A program made the translations under genes and the position numbers. The notes beneath the pieces are model-generated. The model had not been told where the DNA came from, did no database searches, and was given only the letters and a program-made list of their open reading frames with translations. Positions 3,873 to 39,221 of a stretch of DNA of 64,000 nucleotides are shown here, one piece after another (positions within the stretch are counted from its first letter, which is position 1; every line of letters begins with the position of its first letter). The DNA comes from Enterobacteria phage T6. The DNA lies in sequence record MH550421, one strand, 5' to 3'.

Positions 3873-4490
3873 ATGTACCACTTTGTATATGAAACAACAA
3901 ATCTAATAAATGGTAAAAAGTATATAGGAAAGCACTCTACTGATGACTTGAATGATGGTTACCTTGGTTCCGGTAAGGCAATTCAGCAGGCTATAAAGAA
4001 ATATGGTGAAAACAATTTCTCTAGAACAATACTAAAAGAGTTTAAAACTTCCGAAGAAGCGTACATGTATGAAGAAGAAATTATAACTCCTGAACTAATA
4101 AAAAGCAAAAATTATTATAATATGAAACCTGGCGGAATTGGTGGAATTGTTATGACTACAGAGGTTATAGCAAAGATGAAAGAATCTTCCGCTAAAAGAT
4201 TTGAAAACTCACCGGGCACGGTATTAGGTAAAACTTGTTATACTAATGGAACTAAAAATATTTTTATTAAACCTGGAGAACTTGTTCCAGAAGGATTTGT
4301 AAAAGGGATGGTTCATCCTAATAGAAAGTCCAGAAAAGGATGTAAAGTCAAACCGACTACCACAGGAACTTTTTGGGTCAATAATGGCGCAATAAATAAA
4401 TTAATACAACCAGACGGTATTATTCCCGACGGATTTATTAAAGGTCGTCTCATGAAAAGAGATTCTAAAGGCAAATTTAGTAAGGCATAA
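3873..4490 (+). CDS. segE: GIY-YIG homing endonuclease SegE
   Basis: 205-aa ORF with GIY-YIG motifs (KYIGKHS ... DGYLGSG); located between inh and uvsW as in T4. Confidence 0.8.
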   Translation: MYHFVYETTNLINGKKYIGKHSTDDLNDGYLGSGKAIQQAIKKYGENNFSRTILKEFKTSEEAYMYEEEIITPELIKSKNYYNMKPGGIGGIVMTTEVIAKMKESSAKRFENSPGTVLGKTCYTNGTKNIFIKPGELVPEGFVKGMVHPNRKSRKGCKVKPTTTGTFWVNNGAINKLIQPDGIIPDGFIKGRLMKRDSKGKFSKA

Positions 4491-4492
4491 TT

Positions 4493-6000
4493 ATGGATAT
4501 TAAAGTACATTTTCACGACTTCAGTCATGTACGCATCGATTGTGAAGAGAGCACGTTTCACGAATTAAGAGATTTCTTTTCGTTTGAGGCCGATGGATAT
4601 AGATTTAATCCTCGCTTCAGATGTGGCAACTGGGATGGACGAATCCGTCTTTTAGATTATAATCGACTTCTTCCATTCGGCTTAGTCGGGCAAATTAAAA
4701 AGTTCTGTGATAACTTTGGCTATAAAGCCTGGATTGACCCACAAATTAACGAAAAAGAAGAATTATCAAGAAAAGATTTTGATGAATGGCTTTCTAAATT
4801 AGAAATCTATTCAGGAAATAAAAGAATTGAACCACACTGGTATCAAAAAGATGCAGTGTTCGAAGGATTAGTTAATCGTCGTAGAATTCTTAATCTTCCA
4901 ACATCTGCAGGTAAATCTTTAATTCAAGCTTTGCTTGCGCGGTATTATTTGGAAAATTATGAAGGTAAAATTCTTATCATTGTTCCAACAACTGCTCTGA
5001 CAACTCAGATGGCTGATGACTTTGTTGACTATCGTTTATTCAGTCATGCAATGATAAAGAAAATCGGTGGCGGAGCATCAAAAGATGATAAATATAAAAA
5101 TGATGCACCAGTCGTTGTTGGTACATGGCAAACTGTAGTTAAACAACCGAAAGAATGGTTCTCACAGTTTGGAATGATGATGAATGATGAATGCCATCTT
5201 GCTACAGGAAAAAGTATTTCATCTATCATATCAGGATTAAATAATTGCATGTTTAAATTTGGTTTGTCTGGTTCATTACGTGATGGAAAAGCCAATATCA
5301 TGCAGTATGTTGGAATGTTTGGTGAAATATTTAAGCCAGTAACGACTTCTAAGTTAATGGAAGATGGACAAGTAACTGAGCTAAAAATTAATAGTATTTT
5401 TCTTCGCTATCCCGATGAGTTCACTACTAAATTAAAGGGAAAAACTTACCAAGAAGAAATAAAAATTATTACTGGGCTTAGTAAAAGAAATAAATGGATC
5501 GCTAAATTAGCTATTAAGCTTGCGCAAAAAGATGAAAACGCTTTTGTCATGTTTAACATGTATCGCATGGTAAAGCTATTTTCGATTTAATTAAAAATGA
5601 ATACGATAAAGTTTATTACGTATCAGGGGAAGTTGATACCGAAACCCGCAATATAATGAAAACCTTAGCTGAAAATGGTAAAGGAATAATTATAGTAGCT
5701 AGTTATGGTGTATTTTCTACTGGTATTTCAGTTAAAAATCTGCATCACGTTGTTTTAGCGCACGGTGTTAAATCAAAAATCATTGTATTACAAACAATCG
5801 GTCGTGTATTACGTAAGCATGGTTCTAAAACAATCGCAACAGTCTGGGACCTCATAGATGACGCGGGCGTAGTTTCTAAATCAAAAACATCTTCTAAAAA
5901 ATACTCGCATTTAAACTATCTTTTAAAACATGGAATTGATCGTATTCAGCGTTATGCTGATGAAAAGTTTAATTATGTGATGAAAGAGGTTAAACTTTGA
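4493..6000 (+). CDS. uvsW: UvsW SF2 helicase, reading frame broken by an apparent 1-nt deletion near 5552-5556
   Basis: ORF 4493..5590 carries Walker A (LPTSAGKS) and DECH; ORF 5656..6000 in another frame carries motif VI (QTIGRVLRK); restoring one A in TTTAACATG gives a continuous 502-codon gene. Confidence 0.85.
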
Positions 6001-6689
6001 ATTATAAATTAATATATGATAATTTAATTAATAGAGCCCAGAATCGGGCTCGCCTTAATGAATACACTGAAACACATCATATAATTCCTAGATGTATGGG
6101 TGGTACAAATGATAAGTGTAATTTAGTAGAACTAACGGCTGAAGAACATTTTATAGCCCATAAACTTTTAGCTAAAATTCATCCAAACCATTACGGTATA
6201 ATTAAAGCTGTTATATGTATGGGGATGAATTCAAATACTCATGAAAGACACGTCAATAAATCTTACGCATGGGAACGTCGTAAAATGGCAGAACTTCAAT
6301 CCGGCGAAGGTAATCCATTTTACGGAAAACACCATACGGAAGAACATAAACAATATATGTCAAAACTCATGAAAAGTCGTCCAATTACATGGGGAAATAA
6401 AATTAGTAAAACTAAAAGAATGAACCCAACGAAATGGACTGAAGAAGCTAAAAGATTACATTCAATCAATCAATCGGGTAAAAATAACGGCATGTATGGA
6501 AGGAAACATTCCGCTAAATCTATTCAGAAAATTAAAGATAACATGCCAGATAATTCAGGAGCTAATAACCCAGCTGCTAAACCTATAGAAGTAAATGGTG
6601 TTAAGTATAAATGTATGAAAGATGCTTCTAAAGCTACTGGATTATCAATGTACAAACTAAGAATACTTAGAAAAACAGTTAATTTATAA
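5997..6689 (+). CDS. HNH homing endonuclease, MobE-like, with NUMOD-type C-terminal DNA-binding modules
   Basis: 230-aa ORF; N-terminal HNH core (ETHHIIPRCMGG ... NLVELTAEEHFIAH) about 60 percent identical to MobE in this window; apparent TTG start overlapping the uvsW TGA stop. Confidence 0.8.
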   Translation: MNYKLIYDNLINRAQNRARLNEYTETHHIIPRCMGGTNDKCNLVELTAEEHFIAHKLLAKIHPNHYGIIKAVICMGMNSNTHERHVNKSYAWERRKMAELQSGEGNPFYGKHHTEEHKQYMSKLMKSRPITWGNKISKTKRMNPTKWTEEAKRLHSINQSGKNNGMYGRKHSAKSIQKIKDNMPDNSGANNPAAKPIEVNGVKYKCMKDASKATGLSMYKLRILRKTVNL

Positions 6690-6714
6690 GGGCTTCGGCC
6701 CTTTGGAGAAAAAG

Positions 6715-6945
6715 ATGTTACTAGAATTTAAACAATTTCTTTATGAAGCTTCTATTGATGAATTTATGGGTAAAATTGCCTCTTGTCAAACATTAGAAGG
6801 TTTAGAAGAACTTGAAGCTTATTATAAGAAAAGAGTCAAAGAAACTGAATTAAAAGATACTGATGACATCTCTGTGAGAGATGCTTTGGCAGGAAAAAGA
6901 GCTGAATTAGAAGATTCAGACGATGAAGTAGAAGAAAGCTTTTAA
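6715..6945 (+). CDS. uvsW.1: UvsW.1 (76 aa)
   Basis: ATG at 6715 preceded by GGGCTTCGGCCC hairpin and GGAGAAAAAG Shine-Dalgarno; 76-aa product matches the reported size of T4 UvsW.1. Confidence 0.65.
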   Translation: MLLEFKQFLYEASIDEFMGKIASCQTLEGLEELEAYYKKRVKETELKDTDDISVRDALAGKRAELEDSDDEVEESF

Positions 6946-7000
6946 ATTAAAAAAGGCCCAACCAAAAAGGAAGGGCCAAAACTATAGACTAAAGGTCACA

Positions 7001-32718: not shown

Positions 32719-33885
32719 TTAAAAGTATTTTTTAAAACTCATCATAACTTTATCATCAACATCATTATCAATCTGTGCAACAAGGTAAGATGACAATTCT
32801 ACTTCTTGTGGCGCAGATTGAACATTATCAGAATTAAGATATTCACGAATCCAAGGATATGGATGTTTAACCGGAGCATCGGTAATTGGGCATGGAAGAC
32901 CACACTGTTTCATACGAGATACAGTTAAGTAATCAATAAAGCTCCACATGCTATTTGTATTTAATCCAGGAACATCGCCATCTTTAAATAAATGAACTGC
33001 CCAATCTTTTTCTTGGCGGTTAACTTCCATGAAAATATCAACTGCTTCTTGTTCACACTCTTGAGCAATTTTAACCCATTCATCGCCATCAGTGCCAAGT
33101 TGAAGTTGACGAATAATATATTGAGTGCCTTTAAGGTGAAGCTGTTCATCACGTGCAATGAACTTCATAATCTTAGCATTACCTTCCATAATTTCCATGT
33201 TCTTATGGAAGTTAAAGGTACAAGCAAAAGATACATAAAAACGAATAGCTTCCAATGCGTTGATTACATGGAGGCAGAGATAAAGAGATTTCATCAGATC
33301 TCGTTTAGCTCTTTGCTCAACGTCTTTATCGGCCAGAATTAGACCTTGGTCTTTATAATATTTAACCATGTCTTTGGCATTTTCCCAGGCACGGGTTTTA
33401 AGCAAGACATCATCATAATATTTACCAATGGATTCAGCACGTTTCATAATAGCTTCGTCCAACAGAATTTCATCAAATACTTTAGATGGGTCTGCGAACA
33501 GGTTACGCATAATATGAGTATAAGAACGTGAGTGAATTGTTTCACTAAAAGTCCATGTAGCAACCCATGTATCAAGACTTGGGTCTGAAATTAATGACAT
33601 AAGTACAGCAGATGGCGCACGACCCTGAATGCTATCCAAAAGTGATTGATACTTCAGGTTATTAGTAAAAATATTTTGCTGATACTGAGGAAGCTTATTA
33701 AACTGTGCAGCATCCATCATTAAGTTTACTTCTTCAGGACGCCAAAAAAATGATAAAGATTTCTCAATAAGTTCTTCAAATACTCTATGTCGTTGAATAT
33801 CATATCGAGCTAAACCCAATCCAGAACCAAAAAACATCGGCTCAGTCAAAATATTAACAGGGGATGTATTAAAAACTGTACTCAT
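32719..33885 (-). CDS. nrdB: Ribonucleotide reductase small subunit NrdB, uninterrupted (no intron)
   Basis: Continuous 388-aa ORF with the di-iron/tyrosyl-radical fold; no intervening sequence. Confidence 0.9.
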   Translation of the reverse strand: MSTVFNTSPVNILTEPMFFGSGLGLARYDIQRHRVFEELIEKSLSFFWRPEEVNLMMDAAQFNKLPQYQQNIFTNNLKYQSLLDSIQGRAPSAVLMSLISDPSLDTWVATWTFSETIHSRSYTHIMRNLFADPSKVFDEILLDEAIMKRAESIGKYYDDVLLKTRAWENAKDMVKYYKDQGLILADKDVEQRAKRDLMKSLYLCLHVINALEAIRFYVSFACTFNFHKNMEIMEGNAKIMKFIARDEQLHLKGTQYIIRQLQLGTDGDEWVKIAQECEQEAVDIFMEVNRQEKDWAVHLFKDGDVPGLNTNSMWSFIDYLTVSRMKQCGLPCPITDAPVKHPYPWIREYLNSDNVQSAPQEVELSSYLVAQIDNDVDDKVMMSFKKYF

Positions 33886-34523
33886 TTAGAATCCTTAAAT
33901 TTACATTTATCATAATGCCATCTTAAAGCATTGCCTTTATTAACTTTCTTGCCACAATGCGGACAAGGCGGATACTCTGTACCTTGCTTAGTTCTCAAAG
34001 AAATCAAATCACGGGTTTCTTTAGTATGAGGAACATCTCTTGTCGGAGAGATTGTACCATACATCGGATTAAGCACGCCGACTTTAGCAGCAGCTATATT
34101 CTTTTTAGCTTCTTCGGTTTTAGGTTTTCTCATGCGAGCTAAATGCTCTTTGGTAAATTTCCTTCCTTTAAGGGCTCTACTTATCTTTTCTCTGGTTTCC
34201 ATAGAAACTTCACGTCCTGTAGCAGCTTCAGATAAACGTCGTCTACCTAATTCGTACAGTTGAGAAGAAATTTTATATGAGCGATTTTTACCAGTCAAGC
34301 ACATTAAACCAAAAGCTTTCTTTAATCCTGGAGTGTCATATATTTTACATAAAAGCCAATGAGCTATAAAATGCTCTCTACCTGTTAATTCAACTAAATT
34401 TTCTTTATCATCAGAACCTCCCATACATCTAGGGATTATATGATGAGTCTCTTTATATTCGGATAAAGGTTCCCGAGCCTGAGCTCGGGAAATTAGGTCA
34501 TTATAGATTTTTTGATAATTCAT
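33882..34523 (-). CDS. mobE: HNH homing endonuclease MobE
   Basis: 213-aa ORF with HNH core (ETHHIIPRCMGG ... NLVELTGREHFIAH), between nrdB and nrdA as in T4. Confidence 0.8.
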   Translation of the reverse strand: MNYQKIYNDLISRAQAREPLSEYKETHHIIPRCMGGSDDKENLVELTGREHFIAHWLLCKIYDTPGLKKAFGLMCLTGKNRSYKISSQLYELGRRRLSEAATGREVSMETREKISRALKGRKFTKEHLARMRKPKTEEAKKNIAAAKVGVLNPMYGTISPTRDVPHTKETRDLISLRTKQGTEYPPCPHCGKKVNKGNALRWHYDKCKFKDSK

Positions 34524-37344: not shown

Positions 37345-37656
37345 TTACACCGCCATCTTTCCTTTAATTGGCGGGTGAGATACATAGTTGTTAAGAACAA
37401 AATTATGCGGCTTTGCGAATTGACTCAACCAAAATACCTGCGATTCTGTGTTCCATTCATCAAATTCATCTGGAAATTTTAATTGTAATTCGCATAAATC
37501 CATAGGTTCACGACGTAAAATTTCTTTACATTGTTCTACGTGATTCATATAGATATGAGTATTACCACCAGAAAATATCAAATCTCCTGGAATAAGATTA
37601 CACATCTTAGCTGCAATATGAACTAACGCAGCGTATGATGCAATATTAAATGGTAG
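37345..37656 (-). CDS. td: Thymidylate synthase, exon 2
   Basis: Exon 2 begins CTACCATTTAATATTGCATCATAC directly after the intron terminal G; 103 codons. Confidence 0.9.
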   Translation of the reverse strand, partial: LPFNIASYAALVHIAAKMCNLIPGDLIFSGGNTHIYMNHVEQCKEILRREPMDLCELQLKFPDEFDEWNTESQVFWLSQFAKPHNFVLNNYVSHPPIKGKMAV

Positions 37657-38672
37657 CATTATGTTCAGATAAGGTCGTTAATCTTACCCCGGAATTATAT
37701 CCAGCTGCATGTCACCATGCAGATCAGACTATATCTCCAACTTGTTAAAGCAAGTTGTCTATCGTTTCGAGTCACTTGACCCTACTCCCCAAAGGGATAG
37801 TCGTTAGGCATTTATGTAGAACCAATTCCATTTATCAGATTTTACACGATAAGTAACTAATCCAGACGAAATTTTAAAATGTCTAGCTGCATCTGCTGCA
37901 CAATCAAAAATAACCCCATCACATGAAATCTTTTTAATATTACTAGGCTTTTTACCTTTCATCTTTTCTGATATTTTAGATTTAGTTATGTCTGAATGCT
38001 TATGATTAAAGAATGAATTATTTTCACCTGAACGATTTCTGCATTTACTACAAGTATAAGCAGAAGTTTGTATGCGAACACCGCACTTACAAAACTTATG
38101 GGTTTCTGGATTCCAACGCCCGTTTTTACTTCCGGGTTTACTGTAAAGAGCTTTCCGACCATCAGGTCCAAGTTTAAGCATCTTAGCTTTAACAGTTTCA
38201 GAACGTTTCTTAATAATTTCTTCTTTTAATGGATGCGTAGAACATGTATCACCAAACGTTGCATCAGCAATATTGTATCCATTAATTTTAGAATTAAGCT
38301 CTTTAATCCAAAAATTTTCTCGTTCAATAATCAAATCTTTCTCATATGGAATTTCTTCCAAAATAGAACATTCAAACACATTACCATGTTTGTTAAAAGA
38401 CCTCTGAAGTTTTATAGAAGAATGGCATCCTTTTTCTAAATCTTTAAAATGCCTCTTCCATCTCTTTTCAAAATCTTTAGCACTTCCTACATATACTTTA
38501 TTGTTTAAAGTATTTTTAATCTGATAAATTCCGCTTTTCATAAATACCTCTTTAAATATAGAAGTATTTATTAAAGGGCAGTCCTACAATTTAGCACGGG
38601 ATTGTCTACTAGAGAGGTTCCCCGTTTAGATAGATTACAAGTATAAGTCACCTTATACTCAGGCCTCAATTA
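37657..38672 (-). mobile_element. Group I self-splicing intron of td carrying the I-TevI gene
   Basis: Intron starts TAATTGAGGCCTGAGTATAAGGTGACTTATAC after exon-1 TTGGGT and ends ...GAACATAATG; 1016 nt, matching the T4 td intron. Confidence 0.9.
37804..38541 (-). CDS. I-TevI: GIY-YIG homing endonuclease I-TevI (intron-encoded)
   Basis: 245-aa ORF MKSGIYQIKNTLNNKVYVGSAKD... with GIY-YIG N-terminus and C-terminal zinc-finger/HTH DNA-binding region. Confidence 0.9.
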   Translation of the reverse strand: MKSGIYQIKNTLNNKVYVGSAKDFEKRWKRHFKDLEKGCHSSIKLQRSFNKHGNVFECSILEEIPYEKDLIIERENFWIKELNSKINGYNIADATFGDTCSTHPLKEEIIKKRSETVKAKMLKLGPDGRKALYSKPGSKNGRWNPETHKFCKCGVRIQTSAYTCSKCRNRSGENNSFFNHKHSDITKSKISEKMKGKKPSNIKKISCDGVIFDCAADAARHFKISSGLVTYRVKSDKWNWFYINA

Positions 38673-39221
38673 ACCCAAGAAAACATCTACTGATCGTTGA
38701 TACCACTGCAAATCCAAATAGCCGTTACGCACATTAAACTGATAGAACATATGACAAGGCGGTAATGCCATATATTTAAGTTCAGCTGGATTCCATGCAG
38801 AAACAATTTGACGCCTATCATTTGGCAATTTTTTAATACGATCAACAACTTCTATAATTTGGTCTACACCGCCAAAATCGCGCCATTGTTTTCCATAAAT
38901 TGGACCAAGTTCACCGCTATGGTATCCTAAATCTTTTGCTTGATTTTCGTAATTTTCATCCCAGACTGTTTTGCCTTGGATTAACGAATCATGCTGAATT
39001 AATCGTAAATCATTGACATTTGTGCTTCCTGATAAAAACCATATTAGCTCAGCAATGCAAGCTTTCCAGGCGAGCTTCTTAGTTGTTACCGCAGGAAAAC
39101 CTTTAGTTAAATCCCAACGTAATTTAGTACCGAACAAAGCAATTGTTCCTGTGCCTGTTCGGTCATCGGTTTCGTAGCCATTTTCAAAAATGTCTTTAAT
39201 TAAATCTTGGTATTGTTTCAT
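38673..39221 (-). CDS. td: Thymidylate synthase, exon 1
   Basis: 183 codons MKQYQDLIKDIFENGYE...; ends at TTGGGT; in-frame TAA is the first codon of the intron. Confidence 0.9.

Follow-up and report, generated by a model that had tools for sequence, protein, structure and literature searches.

How can an endonuclease gene sit inside the coding region of a helicase gene and leave both that gene and the one behind it intact? The question is raised by the junction between uvsW and uvsW.1 in a stretch of 64,000 nucleotides (nt) from Enterobacteria phage T6 (MH550421; hereafter the window), where an open reading frame (ORF) of 230 amino acids with a TTG start occupies positions 5997..6689 on the plus strand. 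This part of the window (5400-7000) is 99.9% identical to T6 AP018814.1, and 502 phage records match the region. A preliminary description of the window had reported an extra Mob-like HNH gene at this junction that is absent from T4, and comparison with T4, together with matches to the family phrog_655 and the domain NUMOD3, bears this out. We propose that the ORF is, with good probability, a free-standing homing endonuclease gene (HEG) of the Mob-type HNH class, specific for the uvsW/uvsW.1 junction of T4-like phages and with a predicted activity; an active Mob-type homing endonuclease is most likely what it encodes.

Insertion point and the two copies of the uvsW tail

Seven insert-bearing Tequatrovirus genomes were compared with six empty-site genomes, namely T4 (OZ035787), T2, RB14, wV7, ime09 and OES_C-3; T2 is present in the flank alignment and absent from the junction table, which hence holds five insert-free genomes. 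Relative to the empty site, the inserted segment measures 689 nt (5986..6674, plus strand), and its junction can be placed to within 3 nt (AAA). At the empty site, GTA ATG AAA is followed directly by ACA GTT AAT TTA TAA and GGGCTTCGGCCC. The occupied site reads GTG ATG AAA, then an insert that opens with GAG GTT AAA CTT TGA and closes with AGA AAA, then ACA GTT AAT TTA TAA GGGC. Both forms of the junction, occupied and empty, are identical throughout their groups (seven insert-bearing and five insert-free genomes). The preliminary description had placed the gene between uvsW and uvsW.1, which is correct as to the junction but not as to the precise position, given that the insert begins within the coding sequence of uvsW, 15 nt ahead of the native stop codon.

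The insert is bounded by two versions of the uvsW tail. The left and apparently imported copy (5980..6000, plus strand; ATG AAA GAG GTT AAA CTT TGA) encodes MKEVKL and a stop, whereas the right, native copy (6675..6689, plus strand; ACA GTT AAT TTA TAA) encodes TVNL and a stop and, still translated in its original phase, now closes the HNH ORF. T4 UvsW, as crystallized in PDB 2OCA, ends in MKTVNL; the UvsW of insert carriers is still a single full-length protein with a two-residue change in its tail (TVNL to EVKL). Earlier, the 3' ends of uvsW and of the HNH gene had been regarded as only weakly similar; on alignment, the two tail copies flanking the insert are a diverged duplication.

The left copy does more than finish UvsW with EVKL and a stop, as it also holds the Shine-Dalgarno (SD) sequence of the HNH gene (AAGAGG, 5984-5989), its TTG start and the uvsW stop codon. 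Within it, the codons GAG G.. carry the SD and the letters ..C TTT GA carry the start codon, 7 nt behind the SD. The TTG (5997-5999) overlaps the uvsW TGA (5998-6000), as had been described, and an earlier start is excluded because an in-frame TAA stands at 5991-5993. The next in-frame ATG is codon 34, and initiation there would cost the protein the first two histidines of the HNH motif; the N-terminus read from the TTG, MNYKLIYDNLI, aligns with the N-termini of other family members.

On the right side, the HNH stop codon is followed by the native uvsW/uvsW.1 spacer (6690..6714, plus strand), which contains a UUCG-loop hairpin (GGGCTTCGGCCC, 6690-6701) and an SD (GGAG, 6705-6708), so that the hairpin and SD noted earlier behind the HNH stop are indeed there. 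This spacer is the one that follows the uvsW stop in insert-free phages and is identical with or without the insert; its length is 25 nt, not the roughly 27 nt first given for T4. The uvsW.1 gene itself (6715..6945, plus strand; 76 amino acids) begins with the ATG at 6715 and matches Pfam UvsW-1 (E=1.5e-30). As the right tail copy is native, the hairpin and SD of uvsW.1 are untouched and the left copy completes UvsW, both host genes stay intact.

The uvsW gene of the window (4493..6000, plus strand), into which the insert has entered, is frameshifted farther upstream. A 1-nt deletion in an A run near 5555 (5550-5560), where TTTAAAC of T6 AP018814.1 has become TTTAAC, leaves two ORFs of 365 and 114 codons (4493..5590 and 5656..6000) in place of a gene of 502 codons, and the C-terminus of the product aligns to residues 433-502 of T4 UvsW (PDB 2OCA). 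The deletion reflects either an error of sequencing or a genuine mutation in uvsW.

Distribution of the insert and its linked uvsW tract

Within Tequatrovirus, the full insert region is found in 48 of ~500 records (~10%), and a protein at least 95% identical likewise in 48, whereas the site is empty in ~450. The ORF is absent from the junction in T4, T2 and RB14; the presence or absence that the preliminary description had asked about in relatives is thus a polymorphism at one fixed site, with reference T4 among the phages without the ORF. Jiaodavirus and Gaprivervirus show a polymorphism of the same kind. Beyond ~150 nt on either side of the insert, carriers differ from empty-site genomes by as much as the members of either group differ among themselves, which indicates that the insert sits on many genetic backgrounds.

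Close to the insert the picture is one-sided. Eight synonymous third-position differences (5913, 5931, 5934, 5952, 5958, 5967, 5976 and 5979) define a tract at 5913..5985 on the plus strand; all eight are fixed between the seven insert-bearing and six empty-site genomes and fall within the last 75 nt of uvsW, and no fixed difference between the same genomes occurs downstream of the insert. Searching with 5900-5985 returned exactly 48 records at 95% identity or more, none at 90-95% and 814 at 80-90%. Tract and insert appear completely linked, as judged from the two sets, each numbering 48, and from a perfect association in the 13 genomes read. One insert-free phage, OES_C-3, aligned to 5860-5985, carries the T6-type uvsW allele (VVSKSKTSSKKYS) to ~5912 and the T4-type allele beyond, and is therefore a recombinant with its crossover at the edge of the insert-linked tract. 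A linked tract on one side would be the signature expected of a cut within it or just to its left, because the sequence between cut and gene would always be co-converted and must also resist the enzyme. The tract may thus hold or adjoin the nuclease target or the determinants of immunity.

The left tail of T6 (ATGAAAGAGGTTA and following) is closer to the uvsW tails of Dhakavirus PSD2002 (MKEVQI and stop) and of a metagenome contig, L024 (MKEVII and stop), than to the T4 type, which is consistent with import from a foreign donor. Outside the 48 records, none exceeds 89.5% identity to 5900-5985, and the donor lineage of the T6-type left flank is for this reason taken not to be in the collection. 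A microhomology, AATGAAAACA, shared with donors of the type of locus L027, was considered as the cause of the right junction and dropped, since the product it predicts mismatches the T6 sequence.

Orthologues extend the series to other genera. A protein search gave thirteen sequences (P0001-P0013) at 54-69% amino acid identity to the T6 protein, all of 224-233 amino acids except the truncated P0008; beyond these, identity falls to 42% or less, save for a few partial matches. Twelve lineages were read as DNA, comprising the T6 type, Klebsiella Jiaodavirus Roth77, Gaprivervirus SP18 with pEC-M719-6WT.2, Dhakavirus PSD2002, Morganella Gualtarvirus Rgz1 and seven metagenome contigs. The HNH gene directly follows uvsW in all twelve and precedes uvsW.1 wherever the contig extends far enough. 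Its start codon overlaps the uvsW stop throughout; five lineages use TTG, six use ATG and one uses GTG (AAATTGTGAATTAT, at position 1501 of locus L025, metagenome contig ERR14149429_287207). TTG was found in 7/7 Tequatrovirus alleles examined and in four other orthologue lineages, and because it is common to five lineages of a gene under strong purifying selection (see below), it represents a stable condition that has recurred, not decay.

The way in which the coupling junction is accommodated differs among genera. The empty site of Gaprivervirus contains TAATTAAACAGGTGGAAAT once; this sequence encodes the uvsW tail IKQVEI and stop and also holds the SD of uvsW.1. At the occupied sites of SP18 and pEC-M719-6WT.2, a perfect repeat of 19 nt flanks the HEG. 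The occupied site of Dhakavirus PSD2002 has MKEVQI and stop on the left and MKQVDL and stop on the right. In Jiaodavirus, the uvsW stop and the uvsW.1 start overlap at the empty site (CTATGA), and only that ~9-nt junction is duplicated at the occupied one, so that the HEG initiates at the left ATG and uvsW.1 at the right one.

Two database entries are affected by the choice of start codon. The orthologues of SP18 (L022, 1198..1797) and pEC-M719-6WT.2 (L016, 2597..3196) are annotated from an internal ATG as proteins of 199 amino acids, with loss of the N-terminal helix and of two HNH-motif histidines, although the full ORFs have 231 codons. These gene calls are wrong, because the real start is TTG.

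Protein architecture, selection and expression

The product of the HNH ORF (BBF63601.1) matches phrog_655, annotated as homing endonuclease, over residues 1-217 (E=1.1e-59), and the mobE-type gene of the window falls in the same PHROGs family. The HNH catalytic motif (H27-H28, N42, H51 and H55; 6075..6161, plus strand) has canonical spacing and reads T-H27-H28-IIPRCMGG, then N42-LVELTAEE-H51-FIA-H55. The preliminary description had proposed that the catalytic histidines and asparagine be checked on an alignment; H28, N42, H51 and H55 proved invariant in 28 sequences, and H27 is at least 90% conserved. A NUMOD3 DNA-binding repeat region follows, with its best stretch at residues 94-122 (6276..6362, plus strand; Pfam PF07460, 51.8 bits against a cut-off of 20.4). 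Residues 157-216 (6465..6644, plus strand) form a C-terminal domain resembling the I-TevI DNA-binding domain, with PDB 1i3j as match at E=0.006, a Foldseek probability of 1.00 at E=0.06 and a weak hit to Pfam I-TevI_DNA-bd. The AlphaFold (AF2) model has a mean predicted local distance difference test (pLDDT) score of 80, exceeding 90 in the N-terminal 70 residues, and places strands at 25-28 and 43-46 and a helix at 48-61 around the motif. Fold searches support the I-TevI-like C-terminal domain and, weakly, the nuclease fold.

The reading frame is intact in 14/14 alleles and lineages read. The ratio of non-synonymous to synonymous substitution rates (dN/dS) is 0.05-0.07 within Tequatrovirus (T6 against HY03: 19 synonymous and 5 non-synonymous changes), 0.03 for pEC-M719-6WT.2 against SP18 and 0.11 for pEC-M719-6WT.2 against PSD2002. 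These ratios indicate that the gene is under strong purifying selection, and it follows that the protein is made and matters.

As regards transcription, the gene lies on the same strand as uvsW and uvsW.1 and has its own SD and start codon. No late promoter (TATAAATA) was found between 3844 and the HNH ORF, sigma-70-like sites are no more frequent than expected by chance (T4 middle promoters were not scanned), and a terminator scan returned nothing specific to the HEG. The gene thus looks promoterless, like mobE.

A GC-rich hairpin of 18 nt (GAGCCC-AGAATC-GGGCTC; 6034..6051, plus strand) lies inside the HNH ORF at the position of the internal terminator hairpin of mobE. A hairpin ~30-40 nt into the ORF, at the same position and with a different stem, is present in all 12 uvsW-site lineages and in the mobE of the window, and it is more stable than synonymous recodings in 13/13 cases (0-27 of 500 recodings were as stable). 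The internal hairpin of T4 mobE is a weak intrinsic terminator (PMC2790892); a terminator role for the T6 hairpin is doubtful because it has no U-tract. The other copies, found at 34474-34493 on the minus strand for the mobE of the window and in loci L015-L017, L021 and L023-L029, mostly lack a U-tract as well. RNAalifold applied to a MAFFT alignment of the internal hairpin region predicted no pairing, since the position of the hairpin shifts by a few nucleotides between sequences, and was replaced by per-sequence folding with the synonymous-recoding control.

Proposed mechanism, related systems and alternatives

The following course of events is proposed. Without a promoter of its own, the HEG would be co-transcribed with uvsW and translated at a low level through coupling to uvsW termination. 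The protein would combine an N-terminal HNH nuclease, NUMOD3 repeats and a C-terminal I-TevI-like DNA-binding domain, and it would nick or cut uvsW alleles that lack the insert, within the conserved final ~75 nt of the gene. In a mixed infection, repair from the insert-bearing genome would then copy in the HEG together with a short upstream tract, and the eight silent changes of that tract, with the disrupted tail, would shield the carrier from its own enzyme. Such resistance, through a split target and silent changes, is plausible. More tentatively, and with rather less than even confidence, we suggest that the endonuclease travels as a cassette with a recoded uvsW tail that completes UvsW, supplies a ribosome-binding site (RBS) and a stop-overlapping start and, with the silent changes, gives immunity, each move between genera having re-created the duplication of the coupling junction.

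Among the closest known systems is T4 MobE. Shared features are membership of phrog_655, the MNYxKIY N-terminus, the HNH motif, NUMOD3 repeats, a GC-rich hairpin ~30-40 nt into the ORF, initiation at the stop codon of the preceding gene and the lack of an evident promoter. T4 mobE is promoterless and co-transcribed with nrdA, and its product introduces a strand-specific nick into the adjacent gene of phage that lack the insert (PMC2790892). The uvsW-site protein differs in site (uvsW/uvsW.1 instead of nrdA/nrdB), in its TTG start, in a C-terminal module that is I-TevI-like where the mobE of the window has a CxxC...C zinc-type tail, in a hairpin without U-tract and in the flanking duplication of a host-gene tail; its activity, moreover, is a prediction. 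The paralogue itself is a Mob-type HNH gene (33882..34523, minus strand) that occupies the mobE position, between nrdA and nrdB, and its product has 39% amino acid identity to the HNH protein. The first 150 nt of the HNH gene had been given as ~80% identical in DNA to this paralogue and thus as a possible recombination substrate; alignment gives 69% for those 150 nt and BLAST 73% for 183 nt, and the similarity is patchy. At 69-73% identity and with a longest exact run of 14 nt, mobE is a poor substrate for recombination with the HNH gene.

Other systems illustrate how such genes coexist with the gene they enter. The mobE of phage Aeh1 splits nrdA into two polypeptides that reassemble, with host function retained (PMC3045599); the uvsW-site gene is likewise a Mob-type gene within a host coding region whose function is kept, but UvsW remains one full-length protein. 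I-HmuI, an HNH nicking enzyme of Bacillus phage SPO1 (PDB 1U3E), differs in being intron-encoded; its structural match to the T6 protein was indistinguishable from noise, and the PDB search gave no significant sequence match. In the T4 mobA/gene 60 cassette (Bonocora et al. 2011, PNAS 108:16351), the host topoisomerase gene is reportedly split and bridged by a 50-nt translational bypass, and the mobA insert is said to bring additional sequence by which the host gene remains functional and the target of the enzyme is interrupted. The likeness lies in a Mob-type gene that enters a host gene with extra sequence preserving host function; the difference is that here the insert replaces and duplicates only the last five uvsW codons, without any need for recoding.

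Another free-standing endonuclease gene lies nearby. Upstream of uvsW is segE (3873..4490, plus strand), a GIY-YIG homing endonuclease gene; with the HNH gene downstream, T6 has endonuclease genes of unrelated families on either side of uvsW. SegE resembles the HNH protein in being free-standing and present or absent among relatives, and differs in family and in acting at the other end of uvsW. The two genes are distributed independently, since SYGD1 has the HNH gene without segE. In the td region (37345..39221, minus strand), two ORFs surround one of 245 codons, putatively I-TevI, and nrdB (32719..33885, minus strand) is an uninterrupted ORF of 388 codons. In T4, nrdB is interrupted by a group I intron with the defunct I-TevIII (PMC2790892), and segE appears in a review table as an insertion at inh/uvsW that targets uvsW (PMC2988022).

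Several points weigh against a homing endonuclease at this junction, or against parts of the mechanism. The match to Pfam HNH (PF01844; E=0.0049, 17.4 bits) lies under the gathering score of 21.4, although this profile seems insensitive to the subfamily because most relatives likewise have no precomputed HNH match. For this particular protein, cleavage, nicking and biased inheritance are predicted properties. Its target is read from linked polymorphism, for which physical linkage over 75 nt could suffice, and a low dN/dS would fit a benefit other than homing equally well. On translational control, an 11-bp stem in T6 (5964-5974/5988-5998) could mask part of the SD and the TTG (z=-2.2), but a conserved RBS-sequestering hairpin at this position was rejected, as other genera fold differently. 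Finally, a literature search found no description of this protein or of any endonuclease at this site.

Three other explanations have to be set against homing. That the nuclease has been domesticated, no longer homes and is kept because it benefits the phage, whether by excluding co-infecting relatives or by aiding UvsW and UvsW.1 in repair or recombination, is unlikely. It would account for the strong purifying selection, the long association with one junction across five genera and the fact that insertion always leaves both neighbouring genes intact; however, occurrence in only ~10% of Tequatrovirus records and in minorities of other genera is the patchy pattern of a selfish element, and a functional link to UvsW is lacking. 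Exclusion of competitors is, in addition, how homing appears in phage crosses, so that this explanation overlaps with the one that we favour. A defunct remnant, in which an ATG decayed to TTG and the protein is not made or is inactive, with persistence through linkage to uvsW, is distinctly less credible still. The intact ORF, a dN/dS of 0.03-0.11, invariant catalytic residues, a TTG common to five diverged lineages behind a well-placed SD and an internal hairpin maintained against synonymous drift all speak for a functioning gene, even though TTG initiates weakly, the scans revealed no promoter belonging to the gene, the Pfam HNH score is under its cut-off and defunct endonuclease genes, I-TevIII for example, are known in T4 (PMC2790892).

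We attach almost no weight to the idea that the ORF resides in a self-splicing intron or intein interrupting a single uvsW gene, as the label 'group I intron endonuclease' in some records, and older T4 records showing uvsW and uvsW.1 as one gene, might suggest. The two genes are separate in all modern sequences (PMC1524935) and in insert-free phages, the crystallized T4 protein ends where uvsW ends, and the HNH ORF has its own SD and start in a frame that differs from that of uvsW. Searching 5700-7000 against Rfam gave no intron or other RNA family at E <=1. In T4 NC_000866.4, uvsW and uvsW.1 are still fused into 587 codons, in a sequence without the GG of the hairpin.

The gene is already present in databases under such a name. 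T6 AP018814.1 labels the same coordinates 'homing endonuclease', phage PST has mobD/MobE, and many other records annotate the gene as a homing endonuclease. The published list of T4 endonucleases has no element at the uvsW/uvsW.1 site (PMC2988022), and the UFV-AREG1 genome paper lists the flanking helicase genes as coding sequences (CDS) 184 and 186 and skips the gene between. As far as we found, the site-specific clade and the duplication of the host-gene tail are undescribed in the literature. Elsewhere in AP018814.1, segE is annotated as 'tail tape measure protein' and uvsY as 'ribonucleotide reductase large subunit'.

The mechanism is most likely conventional and the gene is already correctly labelled in many records, which makes the advance an incremental one. 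Its interest lies in the clade, which shares one target junction across five genera, with occupied and empty alleles in three of them, and which fits the translational coupling junction in three ways: by duplication of the tail, by duplication of the start and stop, and by the use of TTG, ATG or GTG as start codon. It also yields a testable prediction of the cut site, namely the last ~75 nt of uvsW. If the cassette proposal is true, the clade would constitute a natural series of a free-standing endonuclease gene entering a coding region without cost to the host gene. T4-type phages are a model system for free-standing homing endonucleases, and this junction illustrates how a selfish gene may lie inside a coding region without harming the gene that receives it.

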